Shown in pieces: positions 11,032-32,222 of a stretch of DNA of 64,000 bases. The position numbers and the translations under genes were made by a program. The notes under the pieces are model-generated. The model saw nothing but the letters and a program-made list of their open reading frames with translations. It had not been told where the DNA came from and did no database searches. The stretch's first letter is position 1. Each line of letters opens with the position of its first letter. The DNA is taken from IMG/VR virus record IMGVR_UViG_3300021961_000025, one strand, 5' to 3'. Source of the stretch: a virus.

Positions 11032-11044
11032 AGTCGTATAAATT

Positions 11045-11452
11045 ATGAAGAAAGGTGAAAACATTATGACAATCGAACCAAAAATGCTTGAACAAATTGA
11101 GAAAACTTTTGATAAAATGAGACACTCTTACAGAACTTGGGGTAAGAGAACTGGCGATCCAGTAAGAGATCAAATTAGAGATGAGATGGCTGAACAGTAC
11201 TGTAACAATCTCTCGTTCGAAGATGGTCGTGCTTATATTAGATTGGTTTCTTTCAATGGTACACAAAGAACTGTGCAAGGATTTATTCTTAAGAAAATGA
11301 CTCCAGCGATTGAAAGACTTAACAAAGGTTTTAAAGTTGGCGATCTTTTAAAAGCAGCAGGATGGAATTCCCCTGCAATGAATTTCCCAAGAGGTAACGT
11401 TTTCGATGAGTCGTTCGAGACTCAAGAAATCAGATGGACAGGGATCCAATAA
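11045..11452 (+). CDS. early hypothetical protein
   Basis: GDLLKAAGWNSPA...RGNVF motif typical of phage early proteins. Confidence 0.6.
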   Translation: MKKGENIMTIEPKMLEQIEKTFDKMRHSYRTWGKRTGDPVRDQIRDEMAEQYCNNLSFEDGRAYIRLVSFNGTQRTVQGFILKKMTPAIERLNKGFKVGDLLKAAGWNSPAMNFPRGNVFDESFETQEIRWTGIQ

Positions 11453-11478
11453 AAATGAAATTTTCTTGCAGAAAAGTG

Positions 11479-11507
11479 TTGACTTTCTGCAAGAACTGTA
11501 GTATAAT
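11479..11507 (+). promoter_or_regulatory. early promoter
   Basis: TTGACT-N17-TATAAT. Confidence 0.85.
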
Positions 11508-11520
11508 ATACGTATAAATT

Positions 11521-13336: not shown

Positions 13337-13713
13337 GCGAACCTATCTTCCAAAAAGATTTATTCTTTGATGACTCATTTGCTTTGCAAGAAGAATCAAA
13401 GTATACTATAGGTATGAGTGATAAAATAACTTATAAATTTGACGAGAAAAATCTAATCAACGAACTACAGAAGTATGTTGATAAAACTTATTCTGGTCAC
13501 TATAGTAAAAACAAGTTTCAATCGACTGAGTTTATCATCGATTGTGGTCATGGCATGGGATTTGCGTTAGGCAATGTGTTGAAATATACTCAGAGGTATG
13601 GCAAGAAAGATGGATTTAATCGAGCCGATCTTATGAAGATTCTACATTATGCATTAATTGCTCTACACGTACATGACACTACTAACAACAGCGAAAACAA
13701 GGAGAACTTATAA
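13333..13713 (+). CDS. DUF3310-like / T7 gp1.7-like nucleotide kinase family (start may be 13414)
   Basis: HY...FQSTEFI...GFALGNVLKY..RYGKK...DLMKILHY; internal TGCAA-N12-TATACT promoter at 13385-13407. Confidence 0.6.
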   Translation: MSEPIFQKDLFFDDSFALQEESKYTIGMSDKITYKFDEKNLINELQKYVDKTYSGHYSKNKFQSTEFIIDCGHGMGFALGNVLKYTQRYGKKDGFNRADLMKILHYALIALHVHDTTNNSENKENL

Positions 13714-14375
13714 TGAAGTTTAGTAAAGAAACCCAAGCCATTCTAAAGAACTTTGCTGGTATCAACAGCAATCTTCTTTTGAAAGAAGGCAATAAACTGA
13801 GCACAATCAGTGCACAGAAAAACGTAATGGCGACTACGACCATTGCAGAAACATTCAATAAAGATTTTGGTATCTATGACTTGAATGAATTTCTAGGAGC
13901 GATGTCTCTATTTGAAGATCCAGATTTGGAATTTTCAGATAAATATGTAGCAATTAAAAATGGTAAATCATCCATTAAATACTTTGCTGCAGATCCATCA
14001 GTATTGGTTGCACCAACTAAGGATAGTCTTCCAGTAGATGCTGAAGTAGAATTCGATTTGTCTGGCGAACAGCTAGGTATGATTCTTAAAACTGCATCTG
14101 TATTGCGTGCGAATGACGTAGCGATTGTTGCTGAAGATGGTAAACAAAAAGTTATCGTAGGCGATAAGAAAAATGCTACTGCGAACTCTTATGAGTTTGA
14201 CATTGGTGAAGACGATCGTAACTACCGAATCAACATTCGTGTTGAGAATCTAAAAATGGTAATTACAGATTACACAGTAAGTGTTTCAAGCAAGAGGATC
14301 TCTAAATTCTCAGCGAAGAAATCTGATCTTACATATTACGTGGCGATTGAAGCAGACACAAAGTTTAGCAGTTAA
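13713..14375 (+). CDS. 45: sliding clamp
   Basis: MKFSKET..ILKNFAGIN, FGIYDLNEFL, YYVAIE; synteny 45-44-62-regA. Confidence 0.95.
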   Translation: MKFSKETQAILKNFAGINSNLLLKEGNKLSTISAQKNVMATTTIAETFNKDFGIYDLNEFLGAMSLFEDPDLEFSDKYVAIKNGKSSIKYFAADPSVLVAPTKDSLPVDAEVEFDLSGEQLGMILKTASVLRANDVAIVAEDGKQKVIVGDKKNATANSYEFDIGEDDRNYRINIRVENLKMVITDYTVSVSSKRISKFSAKKSDLTYYVAIEADTKFSS

Positions 14376-14406: not shown

Positions 14407-15345
14407 ATGAGTGATCAATATCTATGGGTTGAGAAGTATCGTCCATCTAAAATAGATGAATGTATACTTCCTCAATCTCTCAAAAATACTTTCCACGAGT
14501 TTATTCAAACTGGACAACTACCGAACTTCTTGTTCTGTGGTGGTGCTGGTGTGGGTAAAACTACTGTGGCAAAGGCATTGTGTAACGAAATCGGTGCGGA
14601 ATATCTTTTTATTAATGGCTCGGAAGAATCAGGTATTGATGTTCTTCGAACTAAGATTAAAAGTTTTGCGTCATCTGTTTCACTAACTGATGCACGAAAG
14701 GTAGTTATTCTCGATGAGGCTGATTACCTAAATGCAAATTCAACCCAACCTGCGTTGCGAGGGTTCATTGAAGAATTCTCTGCGAACTGTCGTTTCATCT
14801 TCACCTGTAACTTTAAAAATCGTATTATTGAACCACTACACAGTCGTTGTTCGGTAGTAGAGTTTAAGATTCCAGGACAAGAGAAACCTGCAGTTGCCAC
14901 TGCTTTCTTTAAACGTGTTGTTGAAATCCTTAAAACTGAGGGTATCGAGCATGATCAAAAAGCAGTAGCGAGTCTTGTGGAGCGATATTTCCCTGACTTC
15001 CGTAGAGTGTTGAATGAACTTCAGCGATATTCGGTAAGTGGTACAATCGACAGTGGCGTCCTAGTAAATACCTCTGACGAATCGTATACTAATCTCTTTA
15101 AACTTCTGAAGGAAAAGAACTTCACAGAAGTCCGTAAATGGATTGCTAAAAATTCAGATCTAGATACAACAGCTTTGTTTAGCGAGTTGTTCAATAAAAG
15201 TAATGATTATCTTGTACCAGAATCGATTCCTCAATTGGTTTTGATTCTTGCAGACTATCAATACAAAGCAGCATTTGTTGCAGACCACGATCTGAATAAG
15301 ACTGCAGCATTTACAGAGATTATGGCTAACTGTAAGTTTAAGTAG
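14407..15345 (+). CDS. 44: clamp loader large subunit
   Basis: LWVEKYRP, GVGKTT, ILDEADYL, PLHSRC. Confidence 0.97.
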   Translation: MSDQYLWVEKYRPSKIDECILPQSLKNTFHEFIQTGQLPNFLFCGGAGVGKTTVAKALCNEIGAEYLFINGSEESGIDVLRTKIKSFASSVSLTDARKVVILDEADYLNANSTQPALRGFIEEFSANCRFIFTCNFKNRIIEPLHSRCSVVEFKIPGQEKPAVATAFFKRVVEILKTEGIEHDQKAVASLVERYFPDFRRVLNELQRYSVSGTIDSGVLVNTSDESYTNLFKLLKEKNFTEVRKWIAKNSDLDTTALFSELFNKSNDYLVPESIPQLVLILADYQYKAAFVADHDLNKTAAFTEIMANCKFK

Positions 15346-15355: not shown

Positions 15356-15742
15356 ATGGCTAGTCCCTTTGACTTCCTTAATAGTATAAACTCTACCAAG
15401 AAAAACCTATTAGAAGAGGATCCACTTGCAATAAAAAACTATACACCATTTATGGTGAATAGAGGATTATCTTATTTCCCAGATACAGTATTATATGCGA
15501 ACGAAATGAATCGCTTTATCGAGATTCCTCGTGAATGGCAATTTTCATTTTTACTAAATACTATTACCAGAAGAAAACGATATTCGAAATGGTTCAAAGC
15601 TGATGCCAAAACGAAAGAAATTGAACTGGTGATGGAATACTATGGGTATTCCACCGAGAAAGCAAGGAATGTTGTTGATTTGTTAACTGAAGATCAATTG
15701 CTTGCTATTGAAGAAAAACTTAATAAAGGTGGAAAGAAATAA
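15356..15742 (+). CDS. 62: clamp loader small subunit
   Basis: PFDFLNSIN, YTPFMVNRGLS, YYGYS.EKA. Confidence 0.93.
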   Translation: MASPFDFLNSINSTKKNLLEEDPLAIKNYTPFMVNRGLSYFPDTVLYANEMNRFIEIPREWQFSFLLNTITRRKRYSKWFKADAKTKEIELVMEYYGYSTEKARNVVDLLTEDQLLAIEEKLNKGGKK

Positions 15743-17970: not shown

Positions 17971-18276
17971 ATGGAGAAACACGTGATCAAGATTCTACAA
18001 CTAGCTAACGCAATGGAAATTATCTCAGAGATTGATGAACCAATCGCTGGAGAAATTCATGCTTCAAATCCTGCAATCATTATGCGTCAAATGCAGGGAG
18101 AAAAAATGGGATTAGGACTTGCTCCTTTTTGTCCATACTCTGACGATAAGAAACCAGTAGTATTTAATCGTGCACAAGTAATTGCAGAGATTACACCAAG
18201 CACTGGACTTGTAAATGAATACAATCGTATGTTCGGTTCAGGACTGGTAGTTCCAGAGAAAAAACTTATTATTTAA
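17971..18276 (+). CDS. conserved Sm-like hypothetical protein upstream of gene 43
   Basis: EYNRMFGSGLVVP C-terminal motif; synteny. Confidence 0.6.
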   Translation: MEKHVIKILQLANAMEIISEIDEPIAGEIHASNPAIIMRQMQGEKMGLGLAPFCPYSDDKKPVVFNRAQVIAEITPSTGLVNEYNRMFGSGLVVPEKKLII

Positions 18277-18278
18277 AC

Positions 18279-18307
18279 TTGACTTTTTCAAATTTTTGTA
18301 GTATAAT
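18279..18307 (+). promoter_or_regulatory. early promoter (gene 43)
   Basis: TTGACT-N17-TATAAT. Confidence 0.8.
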
Positions 18308-18320
18308 ATATTATTAATTT

Positions 18321-20825
18321 ATGGTTGGAGGAAGTTCTTTGTCGTTTTATACTAATGTTCACCAGTGGGGTAACACTTTGCTGGTTCGATCGATCGTCAA
18401 TGGTCGTCACAAACTTGATAAGATTAACTTCAAACCATCTGTTTGGACTACACAAGGCAAAGGTGATACCGAATACAAAACACTTGATGGTCGTCCTTGT
18501 TATGAGATTGAAATAGACTCTATCAAAGAGGCACGTGACTTTGTTGAACGTTACAAAGACGTAGCTGGATTCGAAATCCATGGTCAATTAAACTGGATGT
18601 ATCAGTGGCTGTGGAAACAGTATCCATCTGACATTCAATGGGATATGGATCAGATCCGTATCTATTCTCTCGATATCGAGACTTCTTCAGAAAATGGCTT
18701 TCCGTCTGTCGAGTTAGCAAATGAAGAAGTCCTTCTTATTTCCATTCAAAACTATAACACCAAAGAAATCCTAACTTGGGGTACTCGTCCATACACTGGC
18801 GATGCCACCAACTTCACATTTAAAGAATTCAAAAAAGAATCAGATATGCTAATCGACTTTGTTGATTGGTGGAAGAAGAACACACCTGACGTTGTTACAG
18901 GTTGGAATATTAACTTCTTCGATATCCCATTCTTGTATCGTCGTATCGCTAGAGTGATTGGCGAAGATTACGCTAAACAATTAAGTCCTTGGAAGATTAC
19001 CAAAGAACGTGAGATCTTTGTTCGTGGTAACAAAGAGTTTGCTTATGATATCGCTGGAGTAAGTCAGCTTGACTTCCTAGATCTTTATAAGAAATATACT
19101 TATACAATGCAAGAGTCTTATCGTCTTGACAATATCGCTAAGGTTGAGTTGGGCGAAGAGAAATTAGATCATACTGAATACGCAACGTTCCAGGAATTCT
19201 ATCAAAACAATTGGAATAAGTTTGTTGAGTATAACGTTCACGACGTTGTGTTGGTTGACAAACTCGAAGATAAAATGCGATTGATTGAACTTCAATTGAC
19301 TATGGCGTATGGTGGTAAGATTAATTATGAAGATGTATTCTCACAAGTTAGAATGTGGGATATGCTTGTTCATAATCACTTACGTGAAGACAATATCATT
19401 ATCCCTCCGAAAAAATCTAATAGCAAATCCTCTCAATATGAGGGTGCTTATGTAAAAGATCCATTGGTTGGTATGCATAAGTGGATTGCTTCATTTGACT
19501 TGAACTCTCTATATCCACATTTGATTATGCAATATAATATCTCACCTGAAACTCTTTTGCCTTATGGTGAAAAGTCTGGTGTTGAACATTACCTACGTAA
19601 CAAAGCAGAACCACAAACTGATGTAGCTGTTGCTGCAAATGGTAGTTGTTATCGAAAAGATAAGATTGGTGTATTCCCTAAGATTATGGAAGATCTTTAT
19701 CGTGAGCGAACAGTAGCGAAAAAAGAAATGCTTGCTGCTGAACAACAGTATCAGAATACAAAAGATCCTGCGTATAAAAAGATTATCTCTCGAAAGAACA
19801 ATCTACAAATGGCGATGAAGATCGCATTGAACTCTGCTTATGGTGCAATGGGTAATGAATGGTTCCGATACTTTGATATTCGTATGGCTGAAGCAATTAC
19901 AGTTTCTGGTCAGTTATCCATTCGTTGGATTCACGATAAGATGAATGAGTATCTTAATAAGATTATCGGAACGACTGGCGTAGATTATATTATTGCTGTT
20001 GATACCGATTCAATTTATGTAACGTTTGAAAAACTAATTGATAAAGTATTTACGGAAGAACAACAAAAAGATACAGCAAAGGTTATTCGTTTTATGGATA
20101 AGATTTGCGAAGAGAAGTTTCAACCATTCATTGATGATTGTTATGTTGATCTCGCAAAACGTATGAATGCGTTTGATCAAAAGATGAATATGAAACGAGA
20201 AGTATTGGCTGACAAAGGTATCTGGACTGCCAAGAAACGATATGTTCTTTCAGTGCATAACTCTGAGGGTGTTCAATACGCTGAACCAAAATTAAAAGTA
20301 ATGGGATTGGAGATGATTAAATCTTCAACTCCTCAAGCAATTCGTGAAGCATTGCGACATGCTTTACCAGTTATTCTCCATAAAACTCAATCAGATCTTT
20401 ACTCCTTTATTAATGAGTTTCGTGAGAAGTATGATACCTTATCGGTCGAGGACATTGCGTTTCCTAGATCGGTAAATGGTATCAAGACGTATGGTGATCC
20501 TTCACACATTTATACTAAAGGAACACCATTCCATTGTCGTGGTGCATTAGTTTATAATTATCATCTTAAAGATAAAAAATTAACTAATCGTTATCCATTG
20601 ATTAAAGAGGGCGAAAAGATTAAGTATGTATTCTTGAAAGTCCCTAACACTGTGCAAGAAAACGTCATTTCTTTCATATCTGAATTACCGAAAGAACTGG
20701 ATCTTCACAAATACATAGACTATGATATGCAATTCGAGAAGTCTTTTCTAGATGCTTTACAAATCGTTGTCCATCCATTAGGTTGGAAGGTAAGGGAAAC
20801 AGCTAGTCTTGAAGACTTCTTCTAA
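18321..20825 (+). CDS. 43: family B DNA polymerase (start probably TTG 18339)
   Basis: DIET exonuclease motif, SFDLNSLYPH, KIALNSAYG, DTDS, KKRY, C-terminal SLEDFF clamp-binding motif. Confidence 0.98.
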   Translation: MVGGSSLSFYTNVHQWGNTLLVRSIVNGRHKLDKINFKPSVWTTQGKGDTEYKTLDGRPCYEIEIDSIKEARDFVERYKDVAGFEIHGQLNWMYQWLWKQYPSDIQWDMDQIRIYSLDIETSSENGFPSVELANEEVLLISIQNYNTKEILTWGTRPYTGDATNFTFKEFKKESDMLIDFVDWWKKNTPDVVTGWNINFFDIPFLYRRIARVIGEDYAKQLSPWKITKEREIFVRGNKEFAYDIAGVSQLDFLDLYKKYTYTMQESYRLDNIAKVELGEEKLDHTEYATFQEFYQNNWNKFVEYNVHDVVLVDKLEDKMRLIELQLTMAYGGKINYEDVFSQVRMWDMLVHNHLREDNIIIPPKKSNSKSSQYEGAYVKDPLVGMHKWIASFDLNSLYPHLIMQYNISPETLLPYGEKSGVEHYLRNKAEPQTDVAVAANGSCYRKDKIGVFPKIMEDLYRERTVAKKEMLAAEQQYQNTKDPAYKKIISRKNNLQMAMKIALNSAYGAMGNEWFRYFDIRMAEAITVSGQLSIRWIHDKMNEYLNKIIGTTGVDYIIAVDTDSIYVTFEKLIDKVFTEEQQKDTAKVIRFMDKICEEKFQPFIDDCYVDLAKRMNAFDQKMNMKREVLADKGIWTAKKRYVLSVHNSEGVQYAEPKLKVMGLEMIKSSTPQAIREALRHALPVILHKTQSDLYSFINEFREKYDTLSVEDIAFPRSVNGIKTYGDPSHIYTKGTPFHCRGALVYNYHLKDKKLTNRYPLIKEGEKIKYVFLKVPNTVQENVISFISELPKELDLHKYIDYDMQFEKSFLDALQIVVHPLGWKVRETASLEDFF

Positions 20826-20854
20826 AATCCTTGTAAAACCTTGTGAAATAGGTG

Positions 20855-20883
20855 TTGACTTTTTACAAGAAATGTAGTATAAT
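20855..20883 (+). promoter_or_regulatory. early promoter
   Basis: TTGACT-N17-TATAAT. Confidence 0.85.
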
Positions 20884-20898
20884 AGTCGTTGAAAATAA

Positions 20899-21414
20899 AT
20901 GAAAGGAACAAATATGTTTAAAAAACTAATCCCTGCTGTAGCACTTATTGCTATGGTGGCAAATCCAGCACTTGCAAATGCAAATAATGGATATTACGCA
21001 GTTGTTGAAAACGTTATCAATAACACAAAAACTATTTCAACTCCACAACAAGTATGTACACAACAGCTTGTAACTGAGAGAGTCGATAATCAAGACTTGA
21101 TTGGTGGTGTTGAGGGTGTTATCGGTGGTATTGCTGGTGGTGTAATCGGTAATCAAATCGGTAAAGGTAATGGTAATCAAATTGCAACTGTACTAGGTGC
21201 AATCATTGGTAACAGAGCAATGGCTAAACCTGGAAAACCAGAATACAAACAAGTTGAGAGAATGGTATGTAATACTGTTTACGAAAGTAAAACTCAAACT
21301 GTTGACTACACTGTTACTTTAAGGTATAATGGTGTTGTTTGGAATACGACTATGCTTTCTGCTCCACCAATTGGATCGAAAGTAAGAGTAAATGGTATTT
21401 CTGTTGGCGAATAA
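20899..21414 (+). CDS. secreted glycine-zipper 2TM protein
   Basis: Signal peptide; GGIAGGVIGNQIGKGNG...ATVLGAIIG. Confidence 0.75.
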   Translation: MKGTNMFKKLIPAVALIAMVANPALANANNGYYAVVENVINNTKTISTPQQVCTQQLVTERVDNQDLIGGVEGVIGGIAGGVIGNQIGKGNGNQIATVLGAIIGNRAMAKPGKPEYKQVERMVCNTVYESKTQTVDYTVTLRYNGVVWNTTMLSAPPIGSKVRVNGISVGE

Positions 21415-21438
21415 TTATATTAATCTAAACTAGGAGTC

Positions 21439-22497
21439 GTGATGAACTATTTAAAAGACATGGTAAAAAGTCTTGACAATGAGTATGCTGGACTTGCCGA
21501 TTCAGGCATTGTTGGTGATACTACACAGTTTATCGATACAGGTTCTTATTCTTTCAATGCATTGTTGAGTGGATCAATTTATGGTGGTCTACCTAACAAC
21601 AAGGTAACTGCATTGGCAGGTGAGTCCAGTACTGGTAAAACTTTCTTTGCTCTAGGAGTTTGTAAAAACTTTCTAGACTCGCATCCAGAGGCAGGTATTT
21701 TATACTTCGAATCTGAGGGTGCATTGACTAAAGATATTTTAGTCGAACGTGGAATCGATCCAAAGCGATTTGTATTAATTCCAGTTACAACTATTCAAGA
21801 ATTTAGAACTTCAGCAATGAAGATTCTTGACAATCATCAAAATGTTCCAAAAGATGCTCGTAAACCTATTATGTTCGTTCTTGACTCATTGGGTATGCTT
21901 TCAACTGAGAAAGAAGTCCAAGACGTTTCAGATGGAAAAGATGTTCGTGATATGACTCGTGCACAACTTGTGCGTGGTGCATTCCGAGTGTTGTCATTGA
22001 AACTTTCTAAACTTGACGTACCTATGATTGTAACAAATCATACATATGATGTAATTGGTTCTTATGTTCCAACTAAAGATATGGGTGGTGGTGGAGGATT
22101 GAAATATGCTGCATCAACTATCGTGTTCTTAAGTAAGTCTAAAGACAAAGACGGAACAGAAGTAATTGGTAATATCATTAAATGTAATCTACAAAAATCT
22201 CGTTTCACTAAAGAGAACTCAAGATGTGAATCTAAACTTAACTTCAAAACAGGTTTAGATCGTTATCACGGATTGACTGATCTTGCAGTTGAAGCAGGTA
22301 TTTGGGAGTCGTCTGGTGGACGTATTACTGTTGATGGTAAAAAAGTTTTTGGTAAAAACATTGCACAAAATCCAGAACAATTCTTTACTGATGAAGTAAT
22401 GAAGAAATTGGATGTTTATGTTGGCACCAAATACAAATATGGTACAGGTGATGTTGTCGAAACAGAAGTGGAAGAGACTCTTGAAACTGAAGAATAA
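21439..22497 (+). CDS. uvsX: RecA-like recombinase UvsX
   Basis: AGESSTGKT, LDSLGML, TNHTY, MGGG.GLKYAAS. Confidence 0.96.
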   Translation: MMNYLKDMVKSLDNEYAGLADSGIVGDTTQFIDTGSYSFNALLSGSIYGGLPNNKVTALAGESSTGKTFFALGVCKNFLDSHPEAGILYFESEGALTKDILVERGIDPKRFVLIPVTTIQEFRTSAMKILDNHQNVPKDARKPIMFVLDSLGMLSTEKEVQDVSDGKDVRDMTRAQLVRGAFRVLSLKLSKLDVPMIVTNHTYDVIGSYVPTKDMGGGGGLKYAASTIVFLSKSKDKDGTEVIGNIIKCNLQKSRFTKENSRCESKLNFKTGLDRYHGLTDLAVEAGIWESSGGRITVDGKKVFGKNIAQNPEQFFTDEVMKKLDVYVGTKYKYGTGDVVETEVEETLETEE

Positions 22498-23020
22498 TAC
22501 ACCTATCAATGCCGAGTTTACTGAGCAGGTTGAGGAAACTCAGCCTGTTCTTCAAACTAATAAAGGGGAGATGCCAGCATTCCCTTTACTTTCTAAAGAT
22601 TCGTTTGAATCCGAAGAGGCATATTTAAAAGCAAAAGATGATTATGAAAAGGGACTCACTCATTTTCCTGGAGTCCCACATGAAGTATTAAAAGAATATG
22701 GCAATACAGGTTTTAATAAAATACGCTTTACTGCAGGATTATTAGAGGGTATAATAGTCTCTTTTGGTAGAGTTAATTTTAACACAGAAGACAATGGTGA
22801 AATTAAGTTATCATTCGACTATGAAACGGATGGTAAGCCAAAGTATCGAATGGTTCACAAGGAAGAAATGGAAAAGCTACTTGGGGACTTTTTAATGTCA
22901 CTGATCGAAGAAGAGATGCGTACTAAAAAAGCAATCTTCCAAGGTGGCAAAGATGAAATGGAGAAATATATTAATGACGAGAATAGAAACAACAATCCTG
23001 AAGAATCTGATTCACGATGA
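22412..23020 (+). CDS. hypothetical protein in the gp40 position (start uncertain)
   Basis: Between uvsX and 41 as in T4; beta-rich core. Confidence 0.45.
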   Translation: MFMLAPNTNMVQVMLSKQKWKRLLKLKNNTPINAEFTEQVEETQPVLQTNKGEMPAFPLLSKDSFESEEAYLKAKDDYEKGLTHFPGVPHEVLKEYGNTGFNKIRFTAGLLEGIIVSFGRVNFNTEDNGEIKLSFDYETDGKPKYRMVHKEEMEKLLGDFLMSLIEEEMRTKKAIFQGGKDEMEKYINDENRNNNPEESDSR

Positions 23021-24368
23021 GGAATATCTACGTAAGGTAGTACCACATTTATCAGACAAATACTTCGGTGATCAAATTGAAAAAGCAATCGCTGAGAACA
23101 TCATCGAATTCTTTGGTAAGTATAACAAAGCACCAACACAAGAAATCCTAGCAATCGAACTAGGTAATCGTAAGGATCTATTCCAAGACGATTTCAAAAA
23201 AGCAACTTCTTATATTGATAAACTTACACCTGAAACAACTAACAAAGATTGGTTGATTGATGAAACTGAAAAGTGGTGTAAGAATCGAGCAGTCTATAAT
23301 TCTATTATGGATTCAATTAAGATTATTGATGGTCGTGATAAGCAACACAATCAAGATGCCATTCCTCATCTATTACAAACAGCACTTGGTGTATCCTTTG
23401 ACAAATCTGTAGGGCATGATTATATTGACGACTATGAAGCACGATACGAATTCTATCATCGTGTTGAAGAAAAGATTCCATTTGATCTAGACATGTTAAA
23501 CACCATTACACGTGGTGGATTATCTAAGAAAACTCTAAACATTATCCTTGCAGGTACTGGCGTTGGTAAGTCACTCTTTATGTGTCACCATGCAGCATCA
23601 GTTCTAATGCAAGGTAAAAACGTATTATACATATCTCTAGAGATGGCTGAAGAACGTATTGCTGAACGTATCGATGCAAATCTATTGAATCTTGGTATGG
23701 ATGAATTGAAAGTAGTTGATAAAACTATCTTCGGTAATCGTGTTAAAAAGATTTCTGATAAAACACAAGGTAAGTTGATCGTTAAAGAATATCCAACTGC
23801 GAGTGCACATTCTGGTCACTTCCGTGCATTACTTGAAGAATTGAAAATGAAAAGAGACTTTACGCCAGATATCGTCTTTATTGATTATTTGAATATTTGT
23901 TCTTCACAAAGATTGCGTGCAGGGGGAAATATTAATTCTTATACATATGTAAAGGCAATTGCTGAAGAATTGCGTGGTTTGGGAGTAGAGTATAACGTAC
24001 CTATCGTTTCTGCAACTCAAACGACAAGATCTGGTTATACCAATACTGATTTGGGATTAGAAGATACTTCTGAATCGTTTGGTTTACCTGCAACTGCTGA
24101 CTTGATGATTGCTCTTATTTCTACTGAAGAACTAGAGGAACTTGGTCAGTTAATGGTTAAACAATTGAAGAATCGATATAACGATCCATCTTATTATAAG
24201 AGATTTGTAATTGGCGTTGATCGTTCGAAGATGAAATTGTTTAATGTAGAATTATCGGCTCAACAGAATATTGCAGATAGTGGGCAAGGTAAACAAAAAG
24301 AAGAGAAGTCTTTATTTGATCAATCCCCAATCGGTAAGAGATTGGCTACTGAAGGATTCAAATTTTGA
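22974..24368 (+). CDS. 41: replicative DNA helicase
   Basis: AGTGVGKS, SLEMAEE, IDYLNI, ATQTTR, SESFGLPATAD, KNRY. Confidence 0.97.
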   Translation: MTRIETTILKNLIHDEEYLRKVVPHLSDKYFGDQIEKAIAENIIEFFGKYNKAPTQEILAIELGNRKDLFQDDFKKATSYIDKLTPETTNKDWLIDETEKWCKNRAVYNSIMDSIKIIDGRDKQHNQDAIPHLLQTALGVSFDKSVGHDYIDDYEARYEFYHRVEEKIPFDLDMLNTITRGGLSKKTLNIILAGTGVGKSLFMCHHAASVLMQGKNVLYISLEMAEERIAERIDANLLNLGMDELKVVDKTIFGNRVKKISDKTQGKLIVKEYPTASAHSGHFRALLEELKMKRDFTPDIVFIDYLNICSSQRLRAGGNINSYTYVKAIAEELRGLGVEYNVPIVSATQTTRSGYTNTDLGLEDTSESFGLPATADLMIALISTEELEELGQLMVKQLKNRYNDPSYYKRFVIGVDRSKMKLFNVELSAQQNIADSGQGKQKEEKSLFDQSPIGKRLATEGFKF

Positions 24369-24369
24369 T

Positions 24370-24392
24370 TGCAACAAATAATAGTGTATAAT
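24370..24392 (+). promoter_or_regulatory. putative middle promoter driving the modification locus
   Basis: TGCAA-N12-TATAAT. Confidence 0.6.
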
Positions 24393-24424
24393 ACTAATAA
24401 ACAAAGAACGAAAGAGAAAAAACA

Positions 24425-25720
24425 ATGGTAAAAACTATCACAGCACCTATCAAATATGATGCTGAACATCTAGTTGGACAGTTTGTTGACGAGTCCCACT
24501 ATGATACTCTGATTGAAGAGGATTGTGATTTTTATGCGCCAACTCCAGTTGGTGAAGAAAATAGCGAAGAAAATATTATTTTCAAGTTTCGTAAAAATTA
24601 CTTCACGAAAGAAGAACAAGATACTGCTTACGCTGGTTTGCGTGAAGCAGCAGTAGAAACTCAAAATCGTGGTATGGCAGCAGGACCAAAAGCTGGTTCT
24701 CTTGGCAATCGTGAATGGGTTACTGAATACCAAATGGAAATTATGGATGCGTTTTGCAAACCTACAGAAAATCTATTTGGTGTAGATCGTATCGACGAGA
24801 TTAAGAATAAGTATGGTGACAATCGTGCATCTGCTCCATCTTCTCGTGGAGTTGTTTGGTCAATTAACCGAACTAAAGATGAAGGATTCGAATTTGATGC
24901 ATGGGTTGAAGACACTCGTAAGATGTCTCAAGATGATGCAAAGACAGAATCTGAGCGAGTATTGAAGCAGTTGGTATGTGCCACTACTTATGCTAACTCA
25001 GTATTCTCAGGTATCGCTGGATTCTTTGATCGTTATCCTCGTATTCCATGGGGACGTCCAACAGCATTTACTGAAAAGAATCAAGCCAAGTATGAAATGG
25101 CATTCCCATTCCTACAACATTTGAGTAAGGGATTCAAAGATCTATTACCTATTCGTTATGGTAAGCAAATTGCTGCATGCGAAAAACTAGATTCAAAATT
25201 TGTTATTCCTGGAACACCATTCACTACTGTCACAGTAAATAAAACTTTTAGAACTGCTGCACACCGAGATGCTGGAGATTTGAACGATGGATTCTCGAAC
25301 CTTACTGTTGTCTCTAATAATGGTAAGTATGTGGGTGGTTATCTCGTCTTTCCTGAGTTTCGTGTTGCAGTAAACATTCGTCCTGGAGATCTACTTCTTG
25401 TGAACAATCACGAGGGTATCCATGGCAATACTGAAATGACAGCTGAAGAGGGAGCAGAGCGTATATCATTCGTTTGTTACTTCCGTGAGAAAATGCTAGA
25501 ACTTGGTTCTTGGGATTACGAAATGACTCGTAAACAGTTTGTTGAAGATCGTAAGAATAACAAAGAGCATCCTCAACAAAAGCATTTGTGGAATGGCGTA
25601 AGCGAAGGTATGTGGGAAAGTCAAGAGTGGTATGATTATCTAACAGAACGATTGGGTGAGAATACTGTAATGACTTATCATCCTAATGCTGTTAAGTCTT
25701 CACTTGAGGCATTCTTTTAA
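24425..25720 (+). CDS. TET/JBP-family 2OG-Fe(II) dioxygenase
   Basis: FTTVTVN..FRTAAHRDAGD (HxD), GGYLVFP, HEGIHGNT (distal H), RISFVCYFRE; C-terminal SLEAFF clamp-binding-like motif. Confidence 0.85.
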   Translation: MVKTITAPIKYDAEHLVGQFVDESHYDTLIEEDCDFYAPTPVGEENSEENIIFKFRKNYFTKEEQDTAYAGLREAAVETQNRGMAAGPKAGSLGNREWVTEYQMEIMDAFCKPTENLFGVDRIDEIKNKYGDNRASAPSSRGVVWSINRTKDEGFEFDAWVEDTRKMSQDDAKTESERVLKQLVCATTYANSVFSGIAGFFDRYPRIPWGRPTAFTEKNQAKYEMAFPFLQHLSKGFKDLLPIRYGKQIAACEKLDSKFVIPGTPFTTVTVNKTFRTAAHRDAGDLNDGFSNLTVVSNNGKYVGGYLVFPEFRVAVNIRPGDLLLVNNHEGIHGNTEMTAEEGAERISFVCYFREKMLELGSWDYEMTRKQFVEDRKNNKEHPQQKHLWNGVSEGMWESQEWYDYLTERLGENTVMTYHPNAVKSSLEAFF

Positions 25721-26415
25721 TGTGCGCAATCGTTGGTATCTCAATCAAAGGTATAACACCTCAACAAGAATTACGTGTAGAACGATTAATTCGTGAAGCA
25801 ATGATTCGTGGTAAACATGCCACTGGAGTTAGTTATATCCAAAAAGGTAAACTACAATCTATAAAAGAACCTATCCCTGCAGATGAATTTATGCAGAAGT
25901 ATCCAATCGACAACTTTGTTGATTTAGATGGATGGAAACGTGATCTCTTTATGATTGTTCATTGCAGATATTCAACGTCAGATATTAAATACAACCAACC
26001 CTTTTTCAATAAGAGTTTTTCACTAGCACACAATGGTGTGATTAGTCAAGAACTACCAGAGAATTGGGAAAAACTGTATGGCTTTAAATGTGAGACCAAG
26101 AACGACAGTGAACTACTCTTTCACACTGTCGTTGCTGGTCAATCACCACTTAAAGTTTGGCAGGAATCCTCAATTGCAGCAGTAGAATTATATGATAATT
26201 ACAATCTTCGTTTTTATCGTAATGGTCGAAGACCACTGCACTTGACTGATATTGGTACTGGGTATATAATTACTTCTACGAAAGATATTGTTAAACGATC
26301 AGGATTTGATATTATAGATGAACAGGGAGTTGTTCCTGGAACTTATTTTAATCTTGAGAAAGACCATACTATGTCGTTTGAAGATTCAGGAGTGAAAATA
26401 GATGACTTACAATAA
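25720..26415 (+). CDS. class II (Ntn) glutamine amidotransferase
   Basis: N-terminal MC, RG.HATG, HCRYST, QP, HNGVI, NDSE. Confidence 0.88.
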   Translation: MCAIVGISIKGITPQQELRVERLIREAMIRGKHATGVSYIQKGKLQSIKEPIPADEFMQKYPIDNFVDLDGWKRDLFMIVHCRYSTSDIKYNQPFFNKSFSLAHNGVISQELPENWEKLYGFKCETKNDSELLFHTVVAGQSPLKVWQESSIAAVELYDNYNLRFYRNGRRPLHLTDIGTGYIITSTKDIVKRSGFDIIDEQGVVPGTYFNLEKDHTMSFEDSGVKIDDLQ

Positions 26416-27283
26416 AGAAAATTTTACATGGGGTTATGAAGTAGAATGGGGCGATATCGATCGTCGTCTAACTATCCCTGCAGATCTCGGTAAGTGGGAA
26501 TATGCAGAAACTGATATTGTTAATCTACACGAACCTTTCCAATATATTGCTTGCGATCCACTAGGTGAAGAACCATATATGGGTGGCGAAGTAAATATGA
26601 TGCCGACTAAAACTTGGCAAGAACAAGTAGATCGTATTATCGACCTACGAGAGTTTTTCAAATACCACGGAAACCAACCTACTGCGTCTTGTGTTAATCA
26701 CGGACATCTACACGTTTATGTTCCTGGATTGAAAGATGACATCGGTGCTCTTAAGAAACTGATTGCTTATATCAAAGCAAATCAAAATGCAGTAATTGAA
26801 CATTGTTATGGGTTTTACGATCATCCAGAAATGAAGAACAGTAAAGGTGCAAAGATGTATCTTAAGTTTGATGGTGGTCGTCCAATGCCAGATTATATGT
26901 GTGACAATATTATTAATCTTGCTACCGACTTTGATCATTTTATTAAACTCCATGCTGCAGGTAAAGATGGTGTGTCAATGGGTAGACCATTTAGATTCGC
27001 TATTAATACCTATTGTATGAAACATACTGGAACAATTGAGTTTCGTTGTTTCCGATCTACAACTGATACACAACAGATTAAAGATCAGTTTAAATTTGCT
27101 GAGAAGTTTGTTGATGCAGCATTGAACGATGGACCAAGTGTAGAAAACATTTTATTCGAACAAGGTTATAATTATAACTTTCCTCCATTTGTATGGGACT
27201 GGAAAGAATATAATGGTTGGGTAAATACCAAATACGAAAAAGAGCGTGGTAATAAAGTAAGAGAATACCATGAAGTTGCATAA
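26402..27283 (+). CDS. amidoligase (COOH-NH2 ligase / GCS-GS fold)
   Basis: GYEVEW, GGEVN..PT, HLHV, TIEFRCF. Confidence 0.75.
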   Translation: MTYNKENFTWGYEVEWGDIDRRLTIPADLGKWEYAETDIVNLHEPFQYIACDPLGEEPYMGGEVNMMPTKTWQEQVDRIIDLREFFKYHGNQPTASCVNHGHLHVYVPGLKDDIGALKKLIAYIKANQNAVIEHCYGFYDHPEMKNSKGAKMYLKFDGGRPMPDYMCDNIINLATDFDHFIKLHAAGKDGVSMGRPFRFAINTYCMKHTGTIEFRCFRSTTDTQQIKDQFKFAEKFVDAALNDGPSVENILFEQGYNYNFPPFVWDWKEYNGWVNTKYEKERGNKVREYHEVA

Positions 27284-27821
27284 AGTAACAAGAGAGCAAT
27301 TCGTTTCAGCAATCACTGATGATCCTGCTGATAAGTTTGCGAAAACTTTTGTTGCGAAAGCCAATATGCAAGAGCAGTGGGAGTGTGGCTCTCATCATCT
27401 TTGTATGGGTTTATGGGATGAAGATAAACTAATGGGTGCTATTATTACTTCTATCTCTAAACGAGATCCAAAGGTAGCCAATCTACAATTACTACATACA
27501 TTTGCTGCATATCGTGGTAAAGGTGTAGGTAAAACTCTTTCATTAGACAGTTTACGTTATGCGATACACGAGAAAGCACAATACTTCCGTGTCAGTGCAG
27601 AGATACCAGCAATAGAATTTTATAAGAAAATTGGCTTTGAAATGCTAGGAGAACAGAAGTCTGGATGTCAACTAAGTATGTTCAAAGTTAATCCAGAAAT
27701 GAAATCCTTTGAAGAGGGTGATTACGATATTAATGATGCAACAATCTTCAACGCAGTATATAAAAAAGGTAAAGGTGGTTGTGTTAAAGTTTTCAAAGAA
27801 ACAGAATCACTTTTTGGGTAG
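27270..27821 (+). CDS. GNAT acetyltransferase
   Basis: YRGKGVGK acetyl-CoA motif A; AIEFYKKIGF. Confidence 0.88.
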   Translation: MKLHKVTREQFVSAITDDPADKFAKTFVAKANMQEQWECGSHHLCMGLWDEDKLMGAIITSISKRDPKVANLQLLHTFAAYRGKGVGKTLSLDSLRYAIHEKAQYFRVSAEIPAIEFYKKIGFEMLGEQKSGCQLSMFKVNPEMKSFEEGDYDINDATIFNAVYKKGKGGCVKVFKETESLFG

Positions 27822-27824
27822 GCA

Positions 27825-28415
27825 ATGAACCAGTATTACTTTCATCTTTCAATACCAGAAATAAAACATCCTTTAAATGAAGTAGGACAGAAATGGTTTG
27901 ATGCTCTTAAAGGTGGGCATTGGAACATTCCTCGTGAATATATCTCTAACGATTTAATTAAATTTGCACCAAAGGTTGGATTGCAATTCTTTGATGCAGA
28001 AGTCTTCAGTCTTCCTGCAAACTATCAATTACAAATTCACGTAGATGCTACGAATATGTCACGTAAGTGTAAACTTAATTGGGCATATAGCGAGGGTGAG
28101 CATTACAATGTTTGGTATACTCCCAAGAAAACTTGGAGTAGAATAGCTACTGCAGAAGAACAGAGTGATGGTGCATTAGACGATTACTCTTTTGTATTTG
28201 AATTAGATGAAGTGGATGAAGTAGCAAGGACTGTACTAAAGAATCCTACTGCTGTAGTAAGTGGTCAACCACATAGTGTGATTACTACGACACATCCAAG
28301 AAAGTCTATCTCTGTTACTCTTATGCCAAAGGGAACAATTCCATTTGAAAAAGATTGGGGTATTCCTATTGACGAAATGAGAAACTATTTGAAAGACTAC
28401 ATTATTAATGACTGA
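27825..28415 (+). CDS. cupin / 2OG-Fe(II)-like enzyme
   Basis: IHVD, KLNW, PHSV, R.SIS. Confidence 0.55.
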   Translation: MNQYYFHLSIPEIKHPLNEVGQKWFDALKGGHWNIPREYISNDLIKFAPKVGLQFFDAEVFSLPANYQLQIHVDATNMSRKCKLNWAYSEGEHYNVWYTPKKTWSRIATAEEQSDGALDDYSFVFELDEVDEVARTVLKNPTAVVSGQPHSVITTTHPRKSISVTLMPKGTIPFEKDWGIPIDEMRNYLKDYIIND

Positions 28416-29439
28416 TTTCCGTGAACAAAAAAATCGACGTGAAGCATTTATCAGATGGTATGCTTGGTCGATAAAATATAAAGATTGTGATCCATCAGTT
28501 TGGATGACAAACTATCTAAACGATAGATACGAACATAATACTGAAGAAAGGTTTTGGTTGTGTTGGCTATACGGAAATACATATTATCTGCCAACCTCAT
28601 GGGTACTAAAAAATGAATTTCCTGACTACGAACTTGCAACAATTGACAGACTCAATTGGTGGAATAGTGAAAACTATAAACGACTACGTTATCAAACAGA
28701 TACAAAATATAACAAAGGACATCTCCCACAGATGTTCGAATCTTACCAAAGAGAAATTGGTAAATCTCTTCAATCCAAGTACTTTGAAAACTTATTGGGA
28801 GACAATGAAACAGATTCCTTCCACAGAGTATGGGAAACTGTCAAAAAGAACTTTCATAAATTTGGTAGATACACTACTTGGTTTTACATGCAACATTTGT
28901 ATTCTACTTGTAATCTCCCTGTGGTTCCTAACACTCTTTGGTTTTCTGATCATTCTGGGAGTAGGAGTCATCGTAATGGTTTTCTTTTTGCACTTGGAAG
29001 AGAAGATCTTATCGACGAGAAACTGGATACAAAACAAACAGAGTGGCTCGAATCTGAAGGGAAGTCTTTCCTCGAAGAAATGAACAGACGTTATCCAGAG
29101 TATAAAAAAGATATTAACTTTTATACAATGGAAACTTGTCTATGTTCGTTTAAGAAAATCTTCCGTGAACACCATGGACGTTATCTTGGTTATTACCTAG
29201 ATCGTCAAGCAGAAGAAATCTCTCAAGTCCAAAGTGATGGATGGTATGGTATTGAGTGGGACGTATTATGGCAAGCACGAAGTGAAATGCTAGATCCTCG
29301 TCTTATCGATAAACGAGGTATCAATAAAGAAAAGTTTGCAAATTTTATTAATACTGGATCAATGGATCGTTTGGAATGGATGTATGATGATGTATCCTCA
29401 AATCAATTCTTTTCTCTAGAAAATGCCTTGCAATATTAA
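28408..29439 (+). CDS. aGPT-PPlase clade 2 / amino acid:DNA transferase-like protein
   Basis: DCDP, RFWLCWLYGNTY, FGRY..WFY, SRSHRNG, ET.LC.FKK, RYLGYY.DR. Confidence 0.75.
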   Translation: MTDFREQKNRREAFIRWYAWSIKYKDCDPSVWMTNYLNDRYEHNTEERFWLCWLYGNTYYLPTSWVLKNEFPDYELATIDRLNWWNSENYKRLRYQTDTKYNKGHLPQMFESYQREIGKSLQSKYFENLLGDNETDSFHRVWETVKKNFHKFGRYTTWFYMQHLYSTCNLPVVPNTLWFSDHSGSRSHRNGFLFALGREDLIDEKLDTKQTEWLESEGKSFLEEMNRRYPEYKKDINFYTMETCLCSFKKIFREHHGRYLGYYLDRQAEEISQVQSDGWYGIEWDVLWQARSEMLDPRLIDKRGINKEKFANFINTGSMDRLEWMYDDVSSNQFFSLENALQY

Positions 29440-29451
29440 TTGTAGTATAAT
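29429..29451 (+). promoter_or_regulatory. putative middle promoter
   Basis: TGCAA-N12-TATAAT. Confidence 0.6.
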
Positions 29452-29454
29452 TAT

Positions 29455-29691
29455 ATGAAGAAAACGAAAACTTACATACATGTCAACCAACACGTTATAC
29501 GAGCAAATAAAAAGAATGGGACGTCAGATCCTGTTATTACTGTCAAGCAAGGACGAAAGAACACTTATTGTTCAGAGGTTAAAGTCCTTGGTCCATGCAC
29601 CATTGTTTATGGGGGTAATGATAAACCTATTCTTTCTTGTGGTGCTAGGGTTGTTATATTAACTGAATCGGAAGTGGAGATAATTAAATGA
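29455..29691 (+). CDS. conserved phage hypothetical protein
   Basis: IHVNQHVIRANKK...P.LSCGARV. Confidence 0.65.
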   Translation: MKKTKTYIHVNQHVIRANKKNGTSDPVITVKQGRKNTYCSEVKVLGPCTIVYGGNDKPILSCGARVVILTESEVEIIK

Positions 29692-30239
29692 GTTTAAAAC
29701 TAATTGGAATAGTCGGCATGCCAGGAACTGGTAAAACTACGTTGATGAAAGAGTGGATGGCAAAACGAGAGTGGACAAAAGACACTCCAGTTAAATTGCT
29801 TGATAGTCTAATTAGTGGCGACATTCGCTTATTTGGTAAGTATGAAGAGGGTGATACCTTTGCTGGTACAGATAAACTCTCTATGGCTGTCCAACCTGCA
29901 GCACTAGAATACATACGTATGCCTACTCACGATGTTAATATATTCGAGGGAGATCGTCTAACTTCCTTTGCTTTCTTTAATGAAGCAGTTAAAGAGGGTT
30001 ATGATGTTTCTATTATCGTTCTAAAAGTATCTGATGCAATTCGAGAGCAACGTTATAAAGAGCGTGGATCCGACCAATCAGAAACCTTTATTCAAGGACG
30101 TAGAACTAAGATCGAGAATATCATTAATAGGTTTAGTGGCTCTCCATTGACTGGAGATCCCTCTCTTGTCACAGAGTTCGAACACTCTACACCTGAAGAC
30201 ACACAAAAAATCATTGCCCATATTGAATCTTTGCTCTAG
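29688..30239 (+). CDS. P-loop nucleotide kinase of the type associated with DNA hypermodification
   Basis: GMPGTGKTT, GKY...FAGTDKLSMAVQP, FEGDRL, RY..RGS.Q. Confidence 0.75.
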   Translation: MSLKLIGIVGMPGTGKTTLMKEWMAKREWTKDTPVKLLDSLISGDIRLFGKYEEGDTFAGTDKLSMAVQPAALEYIRMPTHDVNIFEGDRLTSFAFFNEAVKEGYDVSIIVLKVSDAIREQRYKERGSDQSETFIQGRRTKIENIINRFSGSPLTGDPSLVTEFEHSTPEDTQKIIAHIESLL

Positions 30240-30310
30240 TTTGCAAGGATTGCCTTTTCCTAAATAACTTTGGGACGTCTAATTCTAGTTTCTATTAAAA
30301 GGAGTCGACG

Positions 30311-30799
30311 ATGGCAAAGGTTTATACCAGAGGTGGAAGTACCTCTCAGAAAAAATACTTGCAATCTTTAACAGAGTACGCATTACCACTACTGATGTCG
30401 AAAAGACTAGCAAACACGCTAGAGATTACCTACAGAATAGTTCCAAATCTATACACTAAATATGATATAATGGGTGACGCATGGTCGCAAGACGATGGAC
30501 GTTATCCAAAAGAATTTATAGTTCGACTAGACGCATCACTACCTTTACGTGATTTTCTAGAGACTGCATCTCATGAGTTAGTCCACGTTAAACAATGGGC
30601 AACTAATCAAATGAGAGATTACGAAAAGAGTGAAGAGATCACTCGTTATAATAGCAAAAAGATTAACACTAACAAAGTAGACTACTGGGATCTTCCATGG
30701 GAAATTGAGGCACATGGTCGTGAAGTGGGCATTTTTATTAGATGGGTTCAGCATGCTAAATTAGAAAACCGACAATGGGCTAAATGGAAGAGTAAATGA
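30311..30799 (+). CDS. HExxH zincin-like metallopeptidase
   Basis: HELVHVKQW...PWEIEA; CTAAATA at 30260-30266. Confidence 0.65.
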   Translation: MAKVYTRGGSTSQKKYLQSLTEYALPLLMSKRLANTLEITYRIVPNLYTKYDIMGDAWSQDDGRYPKEFIVRLDASLPLRDFLETASHELVHVKQWATNQMRDYEKSEEITRYNSKKINTNKVDYWDLPWEIEAHGREVGIFIRWVQHAKLENRQWAKWKSK

Positions 30800-32073
30800 T
30801 AAAATCCTCGCCGACTGCACAACGTGCGATTATTAACTATTTTAAAACAAAATTAAAAACTGAAGCTGGAGTCAAGTTAGTTGAATCTAGTAGAGGTGGT
30901 GCTCATTTACGATTTAATTATGCAGGCGACGTTTCTAAACTACTTAAAAAACATCACAATGTAGAGATTCGTAATAGTGATCAATCGATTTCTGGAACAT
31001 TTACTACACAAGAAATTATTCTTAAAGAAAAGATCGGTGGTGCTGCAGTAAACGATGGTGCTTATCTTGTTGTTACTACGTCAAGCAAGGGTGTTCTCTC
31101 TACTAAAAATTTAACTCCAGACGAATTAAAACTTCCTGGAGTCCATAAGAAAAATACATTTAAGAAAGATGTTATTGCTGGACTTAAAGCAAGTTCTTCT
31201 CCAGTTAACATTAGAGAATTTTGTAAAGATCTACTCGATGCCTCAGAAAGATCTGATGGTAAAATCGAAAGTGAGTTTATGGATAGTATTAGCAACAGTG
31301 ATATTACTACTATTGCTAAAAACTTTGGTGAGATCTCTGGTGCATTATGGTATATGACTCACTATAATAAAAAAGCCACTGCTGTAGAATATCCAAACGA
31401 AAGTAACTTTCCTCTTGTAGATTATTTTATTCACGAAGACAAAAAGAAAATCGCAGTATCAGCAAAAGCCAATGATGGTGCTCCACCAAGTATTAATGCA
31501 ATTGCTGATGTATTAAGAAAAAAGAAATATACTGATAGTAAAAAGGAAGACGCAAGGAAAGCAATTATTGCTATTAGCGATTCTTCTACTGTAGATGGTA
31601 TTATTAATGCCTCTAAAGAATTGAGTACTGATGGGTATAAATGGGTAAGTAAAGAATTTAAAAAGGGACAAGTGTTTACTGCTGCAGATTGCGAAACGTT
31701 TCTGTCCTCGTATAAGTCTGGTAAATCAGTATTTGCAGAATTAGAACCATTGTATAAATTAATTGGTCGTGCTGCATCATTAGACATTATTGAACGAACA
31801 ATGAAAGCCAATGGTAAGCGATGGGGATTTATCATCTCTCCAATGGGCTATGCTTTGGTCGATCAGCTAAATAAGACAGAGAAGTATATAGAAGTCTTAA
31901 ACGATGCTGCAAAAGAGATCCAACTAGAACAGCTATACATTAAGATCAAGTTAAGTCAGAAAGCAGTGTCTTACGAAGTCAAGTTATTTGGTACTTCGAA
32001 GTTCAAATTCGAGTACAATGCGAACGCTGGGCAACCCTCTTTGAAGAAAATTTCCTTCAAAATGGAGAAATAA
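30796..32073 (+). CDS. putative PD-(D/E)xK restriction-like endonuclease
   Basis: NFGE...YP...NFPLVDY...AVSAK pattern. Confidence 0.45.
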   Translation: MIKSSPTAQRAIINYFKTKLKTEAGVKLVESSRGGAHLRFNYAGDVSKLLKKHHNVEIRNSDQSISGTFTTQEIILKEKIGGAAVNDGAYLVVTTSSKGVLSTKNLTPDELKLPGVHKKNTFKKDVIAGLKASSSPVNIREFCKDLLDASERSDGKIESEFMDSISNSDITTIAKNFGEISGALWYMTHYNKKATAVEYPNESNFPLVDYFIHEDKKKIAVSAKANDGAPPSINAIADVLRKKKYTDSKKEDARKAIIAISDSSTVDGIINASKELSTDGYKWVSKEFKKGQVFTAADCETFLSSYKSGKSVFAELEPLYKLIGRAASLDIIERTMKANGKRWGFIISPMGYALVDQLNKTEKYIEVLNDAAKEIQLEQLYIKIKLSQKAVSYEVKLFGTSKFKFEYNANAGQPSLKKISFKMEK

Positions 32074-32160
32074 CCCTACTTTTTTGAGGGTTTTTTCATA
32101 AGTTGTTGTATTTGCAACAAAAAAAGATTGAAAAAAAGAGCAAAAAAAGCAAAATAGTTG

Positions 32161-32189
32161 TTGACTTTCTTGCAACTTTATGGTATAAT
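32161..32189 (+). promoter_or_regulatory. early promoter with upstream stem-loop
   Basis: TTGACT-N17-TATAAT; AACCCT...AGGGTT at about 32072-32092. Confidence 0.85.
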
Positions 32190-32222
32190 AGCAGTATGAA
32201 AATTGAAAAGGAAACTGAAATT

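Follow-up and report, generated by a model that had tools for sequence, protein, structure and literature searches.

Replication and transcription proteins of phage T4 dock on the sliding clamp gp45 through short peptides: the C-terminal tail of the DNA polymerase gp43 (EKASLDFLFG) binds gp45 (PMC6212786, PMC2988020), gp43, gp55, and gp33 carry interchangeable C-terminal gp45-binding epitopes behind divergent linkers (PMC2988020), and in T4 DNA ligase the peptide, GLDFLFD, forms a loop inside the protein (PMC6212786; PDB 6DRT). The T4 alpha-glucosyltransferase also co-purifies with gp45 (Sommer et al. 2004, cited in PMC13216743); the citing 2026 study confirms the interaction by pull-down and reports that clamp binding is not the main determinant of the share of modification (PMC13216743). 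Phage thymine dioxygenases, experimentally shown only recently, belong to the 5-methylpyrimidine dioxygenases and comprise ParB-dependent and ParB-independent subclasses, the former requiring a ParB-like helper (PMC13229309). Here, we describe a TET/JBP-family dioxygenase encoded in IMG/VR virus record IMGVR_UViG_3300021961_000025, a 64 kb stretch of DNA (hereafter, the window, to which our conclusions on gene absence in this phage are limited) that spans the replication genes of a T4-like myophage known only from uncultured material. The predicted enzyme ends nearly as does the gp43 polymerase of the same window, and we propose, with a probability of roughly 0.65, that this tail docks on gp45 as a candidate epitope like that of the polymerase.

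As in T4 and RB69 gp43, gp55, and gp33, the window dioxygenase carries a short hydrophobic-acidic C-terminal motif behind a variable, flexible linker; its tail differs little in sequence from the one on the cognate polymerase, and a gp45 homolog and its loader are encoded nearby. The differences lie in the carrier, a base-modifying dioxygenase (in relatives also an amino acid:DNA transferase (ADDT), a GNAT acetyltransferase, and a glycosyltransferase) rather than the polymerase, sigma factor, co-activator, and ligase of T4, and in the motif, SLExFF(G) versus SLDFLFG, for which clamp binding is known in T4 and argued by analogy in the window. The T4 alpha-glucosyltransferase is likewise a DNA-modification enzyme at the sliding clamp, with modification proposed to run alongside replication, but it represents a different enzyme class, acts on a different base by glucosylating pre-made 5-hydroxymethylcytosine, and, in the passages of PMC13216743 consulted, is described without a gp43-like C-terminal tail. 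The phage gene clusters of O'Toole et al. 2026 (PMC13229309) and the metavirome TET_JBP + 5-HMUDK + aGPT-Pplase clusters of Lee et al. 2021 (PMC8989533) combine a TET/JBP gene with a P-loop kinase, ADDT, glutamine amidotransferase (GATase), amidoligase, and GNAT; they also share with the window the lack of a C5 methyltransferase (C5-MTase) and a dUMP hydroxymethylase, and the predicted in situ conversion of thymine to 5-hydroxymethyluracil (5hmU) followed by hypermodification. In contrast to the ParB-dependent class, no ParB was found in the scanned ORFs of the window or in complete relatives, and the window enzyme bears a polymerase-type tail instead of [RK]xGDPLY; the replication clamp would here replace the ParB-like partner. 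In the literature retrieved by a limited search, a gp45-type tail is not mentioned on any phage TET/5mYOX enzyme. Eukaryotic DNA modifiers such as DNMT1 are tethered to PCNA via a PIP box, which follows the same logic of coupling a base modifier to replication by a short clamp-binding peptide, but this is an analogy only, the enzymes being unrelated and both the clamp and the motif different.

Profile and structure comparisons place the window dioxygenase in the TET/JBP (5mYOX) family of Fe(II)/2-oxoglutarate (2OG) enzymes, with a predicted DNA-oxidizing activity. Residues 205-355 match PF12851 (79.8 bits; cut-off 34.9), and the H-x-D...H iron triad and the 2OG-binding arginine (H280, D282, H333, and R346) are invariant in alignments with 5 and with 49 homologs. 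The AlphaFold2 (AF2) model (predicted local distance difference test score, pLDDT, 87.9) contains a double-stranded beta-helix for which Foldseek found CcTet, TET2, and NgTET1 (E 9e-12 to 4e-10, probability 1.00).

The dioxygenase ends ...YHPNAVKSSLEAFF (KSSLEAFF) and gp43 ends ETASLEDFF. An earlier reading of the letters of this DNA (hereafter, the original prediction) had noticed the likeness of SSLEAFF to ASLEDFF and pointed to the gp45-binding peptide of T4-type gp43; both strings are present in the predicted proteins, and that binding agrees with the T4 work cited above. When the predicted proteins of the window (19,988 residues in all) were searched for the strict pattern [ST]L[ED]xFF, it occurred exactly twice, in gp43 and in the dioxygenase (hereafter, TET), both times at the extreme C-terminus. 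Because only about 5e-4 further C-termini bearing the motif are expected from the window residue frequencies, the match exceeds chance; a complete related genome (G001) likewise has only two strict matches, in gp43 and TET. The two tails differ in codons, and therefore do not reflect a recent DNA copy. The tail lies outside the predicted fold, the confident part of which stops at about residue 420 and is followed by pLDDT values of 63 and 47. In an alignment of 49 homologs, down to 38% identity, L427, F430, and F431 carry 3.7-4.2 bits of information (protein mean, 2.8), whereas linker residues 421-425 carry 0.8-2.4 bits and the linker varies in length. The tail shows the architecture of a short linear motif, with a conserved end behind a linker that changes in both sequence and length.

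This end is widely retained. Dioxygenase homologs at E ≤ 1e-10 numbered 2,787, and the tail was read in the best 120 of them (60-94% identity), all 120 of which end [ST][LI][ED]xFF(G/A/S/T), the last residue being optional. Across 80 IMG/VR loci, the gene order gp43-UvsX-gp41-TET is fixed and the TET tail is present without exception (80/80), and the co-resident gp43 proteins have SLEDFF(G)-like ends, [ST][LI]E[DSE]FF(G/A/S), in 40 of 40 cases. Essentially all orthologs down to about 40% identity keep the tail while the linker drifts, and within T4-type replication modules it is found in all close and most distant TET orthologs. Clustering at 50% identity gave 150 listed representatives, 42 of them below 280 aa in length (many of these are probably truncated); the pattern occurs in 24 of the 150, with 22 of these falling within the 50 best matches to the window enzyme, and about half of the 24 are full-length (430-480 aa), whereas about half are shorter and probably fragments. 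Other than these 24, the listed representatives include a clade of approximately 300-aa TET proteins without the tail. The tail is also missing in the TET homolog of Synechococcus phage S-CBWM1, which lacks both gp43 and gp45 and serves as a negative control, as well as in a TET (P0141) encoded beside terminase and tail genes, outside any gp43-gp41 module. A TET-kinase fusion (P0231) bears its end, ADLSEMFG, after the P-loop kinase3 domain, and the tail therefore behaves as a portable end module.

In the C-terminal sequences compared, the TET tail tracks lineage variants of the cognate gp43, including [LM]F forms in L105 (gp43 end SMDDLFG, TET end TLEEMFG) and in Caulobacter phage Cr30 (DLSSLFD and GATLF); the corresponding pairs are TLDSFFA and TLGDFFV in Stenotrophomonas phage DLP6, and TLEDFFG and SLEEFFV in C48C1. 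Further lineages with non-FF ends were sought, but the contigs of P0138, P0136, and P0231 were too short or lacked gp43, and a second IMG/VR scan yielded mostly FF lineages.

The proposed receptor belongs to the same T4-type replication module, which comprises gp55, gp47, gp46, gp45, gp44/gp62, RegA, gp43, UvsX, and gp41; the modification cassette starts directly after gp41, behind gp43-UvsX-gp41. The gp45 profile matches T4 gp45 (1CZD; 4.9e-37) and RB69 gp45 (1B77/1B8H; 8e-35) over the full length. At the level of sequence, the dioxygenase thus has every attribute of a gp45 client. The coupling of modification to the clamp fits every computational test run and is supported by these comparisons because the tail is kept, matches the cognate gp43, lies outside the fold, and is absent where gp43 and gp45 are absent, and because gp45, gp44, and gp62 are all encoded. 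By analogy with T4 gp43, gp55, and gp33, we infer that gp45 binds the tail, and DNA masking is probably carried out on the clamp behind the replication fork. Under this model, the gp44/62 loader would place the gp45 clamp on phage DNA, the SLExFF epitope would most likely dock, on its flexible linker, in a hydrophobic pocket of trimeric gp45, and the docked dioxygenase would work beside or just behind the fork, where newly made phage DNA would be targeted and the clamp would serve as a sliding platform for a non-processive enzyme. The TET/JBP (5mYOX) enzyme would convert thymine in polymerized DNA to 5hmU, the P-loop kinase would phosphorylate it, ADDT would swap the phosphate for an amino acid, and the GATase, the amidoligase-like enzyme, and GNAT would tailor the side chain, an order of steps and a chemical product that we infer. 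Clamp docking, if true, would add base-modifying enzymes to the clients of gp45, link counter-defence DNA masking to the fork, and offer a route to in vitro activity of such enzymes, which are relevant as thymine-oxidizing tools. The tailed clade is very large and environmental, with thousands of homologs, and its members lie behind gp41 in the related loci examined.

Related tails occur on other proteins of the relatives. Of 30 ADDT orthologs, 29 end GLExF[ALVFG], with L337 and E338 invariant; GNAT orthologs end [SV]DLNxF[LI], a second GNAT family PSLE[ED]FLK, and a TAGT-like protein of L105 SLDEFL. These ADDT, GNAT, and TAGT-like tails suggest a tool-belt arrangement, with one clamp serving several enzymes of the pathway. 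In gp55 of relatives, [ST]LDxF[IL]G, followed by an acidic extension, occupies the position of the T4 gp55 clamp epitope (PMC2988020); the window gp55 (C-terminus 4230-4305) has GLDELAL and then an acidic run, without the aromatic anchor, like SLENAL of the window ADDT. The original prediction had also counted SLFG at the end of the GNAT and FFSLE near the end of the transferase. Both strings exist, but as clamp tails they are degenerate in this window and therefore lend it little support, which comes instead from the respective families. The window ADDT ends ...SSNQFFSLENALQY (also given as NQFFSLENALQY; FFSLENALQY), and its AF2 model leaves this tail region disordered (pLDDT under 50 over residues 320-343) and places a short helix at 337-340, on the motif. 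No conserved tail was found in GATase orthologs, and no tail motif in amidoligase orthologs (72-76% identity). An 87-aa family ending LLEFLKG was rejected as a clamp client: it is thioredoxin, and the end is its ordinary last helix.

Several observations weigh against clamp docking. In one lineage recovered from three samples (L123, L124, and L139), TET ends KKKVSLWS while gp43 retains SLSAFFK (the coding sequence of this TET end runs into the beginning of the gene that follows). The co-variation of gp43 and TET comprises only about five lineages, and in the close clade the residue after FF (FF versus FFG) shows no co-variation between the two proteins, so that this ending was not used as evidence. 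The window ADDT keeps L-E but has alanine at the conserved phenylalanine of its family, the window GNAT (ETESLFG) retains just L and F as a minimal tail, and the P-loop kinase orthologs have no gp43-like tail, although the kinase acts on DNA; their conserved end, FLEKHL, was not counted because it is not gp43-like. In G001 (L092:7960-8691; L098:15553-16290), the baseplate hub ends GLESFF and the head-tail adaptor LDFFLG, polymerase-like ends on structural proteins with no evident role at the clamp, and the loose motif [LIMV][DE]x[FWY] near the end, of which about 2 are expected per 231 proteins, is present in 7, some of them structural. Because similar ends occur on the baseplate hub and thioredoxin of relatives, the motif alone is no proof.

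The structural proteins also bear on an alternative that we consider unlikely, namely, that the tail is functional with a partner other than gp45, either a different protein of the replisome or the pathway that gp43 uses as well, or the enzyme itself, as an intramolecular C-terminal element for activity. In its favor, the binding of the tail by gp45 is argued from analogy, and the short, ParB-linked TET clade has a conserved end of its own, commonly [RK]xGDPLY. Against this alternative, the tail copies the end of gp43, which binds gp45 in T4 and RB69 (PMC2988020, PMC6212786; 1B8H), sits behind a variable, low-confidence linker instead of packing on the fold, has been relocated to the end of the fused kinase domain, and is absent where gp45 is absent. 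The short clade itself corresponds to the subclass that O'Toole et al. describe as ParB-dependent; in its member L110 (2401-6427), ParB_N and ADDT genes flank the TET gene, and the conserved end of the clade may be the ParB-contacting extension discussed by these authors (PMC13229309). The window enzyme has an N-terminal extension that makes it some 130 residues longer, and it lies outside the ParB-dependent 5mYOX subclass; ParB_N was absent from the scanned and cassette open reading frames (ORFs) of the window and from 5 related IMG/VR records (including four complete genomes, recognized by terminal repeats), which were screened for PF00145, PF00303, and ParB_N.

A bolder version of clamp docking, which we raise tentatively and lean against, would make gp45 the obligatory activator as well as the platform of ParB-less phage thymine dioxygenases, in the role of the ParB-like protein; the three pockets would hold oxidase, amino-acid transferase, and tailoring enzyme as an assembly line, and hypermodification would be confined to DNA clamped by the phage's own loader, a self-marking rule. 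Obligatory clamping could explain why some ParB-less clade C1 enzymes, which may or may not belong to the long T4-like clade, are reported to be inactive when expressed alone in E. coli (PMC13229309, PMC8256090).

With regard to the substrate, thymine rather than pre-made 5hmU is supported and fits all computational tests, because ThyX is present, a C5-MTase and a ThyA-type hydroxymethylase are not found, and a kinase and ADDT follow downstream. On these points the original prediction held: the ThyX that it named is a clear PF02511 match (Table), Pfam scans detected neither PF00145 nor PF00303 in window ORFs of at least 220 aa, and its suggestion to look for a C5-MTase and hydroxymethylase beyond the window gave the same outcome, with neither domain in any of the 5 related records. 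ThyX is encoded in all four complete related genomes. The 5-phosphomethyldeoxyuridine (5-PmdU) hypermodification pathway (Lee 2018/2021) requires a kinase and ADDT, both of which (PF18751 and PF18724) were found above the cut-offs; the ThyA-family dUMP hydroxymethylase that would supply 5-hydroxymethyldeoxyuridine (5-hmdU) before replication was found neither in the window nor in the 5 related records. With TET as the supplier, the window pathway matches a variant already noted in PMC8989533. The thymine chemistry is already published for such clusters: conversion of thymine to 5hmU, 5-PmdU, and then an amino-acid adduct was proposed for TET_JBP contigs without a hydroxymethylase (Lee et al. 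2021, PMC8989533), and thymine oxidation was demonstrated for phage T-dioxygenases (O'Toole et al. 2026, PMC13229309). The new part is the clamp idea alone.

Counting against thymine, a C5-MTase may be encoded elsewhere in the phage, 64 kb of whose genome were seen, and the dioxygenase would then act on 5-methylcytosine (5mC), as in the clade A/B-type phage TET pathway; the characterized clade A and B phage TETs use 5mC (PMC8256090), and some T-dioxygenases oxidize it as well (PMC13229309). We regard this as very unlikely, given that PF00145 is lacking from the window ORFs and from the four complete related genomes, the neighbors are a P-loop kinase of the 5-hmdU kinase type and ADDT, both of which use bases derived from 5hmU (PMC8989533), TET is found fused to a kinase, and ThyX is present with no hydroxymethylase found. 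Finally, it is hardly credible that the two tails resemble each other by chance or through the composition of amphipathic C-terminal ends, with no shared function: the frequency of the loose motif in G001 and the thioredoxin helix end that mimics it speak for chance, but the strict motif is confined to gp43 and TET in two proteomes against the minute expectation given above, the two tails use different codons, and the tail is conserved to about 40% identity as the linker drifts.

Table. Features of the window that are discussed in the text, in genomic order
Feature	Position	Strand	Profile match or remark
gp55 late sigma factor	3706-4308	+	phrog_234 at 1.3e-60; end ...GLDELALDNGEDDESSDNN
gp45 sliding clamp, proposed tail receptor	13713-14375	+	PF09116 at 1.5e-13
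Clamp loader gp44 and gp62	14407-15345 (gp44); 15356-15742 (gp62)	+	PF21328 Gp44_lid, PF00004, PF16790 Phage_clamp_A
gp43 family-B DNA polymerase, 834 aa	18321-20825	+	PF00136, PF03104; ends ...RETASLEDFF (tail 20802-20822)
UvsX	21439-22497	+	
gp41 helicase	22944-24368	+	
TET/JBP-family (5mYOX) dioxygenase, 431 aa, predicted thymine dioxygenase	24425-25720	+	PF12851
Candidate gp45-binding epitope SSLEAFF, dioxygenase C-terminus	25697-25717	+	
Glutamine amidotransferase (Ntn type)	25720-26415	+	PF13522 at 1.3e-8
Amidoligase_2-like enzyme	26402-27283	+	PF12224, E 0.0012, under cut-off
GNAT acetyltransferase	27270-27821	+	PF13673 at 2.9e-14; ends ...KETESLFG
196-aa cassette protein, no assigned function	27825-28415	+	No Pfam match; weak phrog_2269 match
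Amino acid:DNA transferase (ADDT / aGPT-Pplase)	28408-29439	+	PF18724, 54.7 bits (cut-off 26.2)
78-aa protein, no assigned function	29455-29691	+	phrog_8676 at 1.5e-21
P-loop nucleotide kinase 3 (5-hmdU DNA kinase family)	29688-30239	+	PF18751, 63.3 bits (cut-off 27)
ThyX flavin-dependent thymidylate synthase	45571-46254	+	PF02511 at 3.5e-43; RHRxxS motif

All genes of the window are on the + strand (Table). The window gp43 is 51-53% identical to cyanophage gp43, and the cassette DNA had no megablast match among phage records. The T4 late-promoter core TATAAATA was not found on either strand of the whole window (1-64000), where shuffled sequences predict 6.2 occurrences, and a scan of 18000-32200 for σ70-like promoters gave 43 sites, fewer than the 52.9 in shuffles. 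One site in the gap between gp41 and TET (24365-24392), matching 10 of 12 σ70-like positions, is a lead only. Gp41 has a conserved terminal peptide as well: its orthologs in 77 related loci share a C-terminal F-x-G-F-K-F (EGFKF at 24345-24365 in the window), a second such peptide of the replisome. Auxiliary genes encode a large protein of a peptidase family (phrog_459) with a CbbQ/NorQ-type AAA ATPase behind it (8327-12696) and, further on, a class-III aminotransferase (59633-60850), which could act as a supplier to the modification pathway.

The cassette appears to be assembled from modules and to change quickly. In two relatives (L106:2981-7992 and L107:11312-16628, compared with window 25720-30239), other genes have taken the place of those downstream of TET: TET, 87% and 78% identical to that of the window, respectively, is followed by a 306-aa protein without assigned function, a different GNAT, a 373-aa protein likewise without assigned function, ADDT, and the kinase, a set that replaces the GATase, amidoligase, and GNAT of the window. 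In many other loci, TET has no ADDT or kinase nearby, and the TET domain is also found fused in metagenome proteins (P0231, P0161, P0238, and P0270), with partners that include P-loop kinase3, TET-associated glycosyltransferases, and an FkbM methyltransferase. An inositol-1-phosphate synthase lies inside the TET/ADDT cassette in the metagenomic phage L105 (13734-14969) and in Caulobacter phage Cr30 (L002:14293-15474), a hint that this lineage makes another product, one bearing a sugar alcohol.

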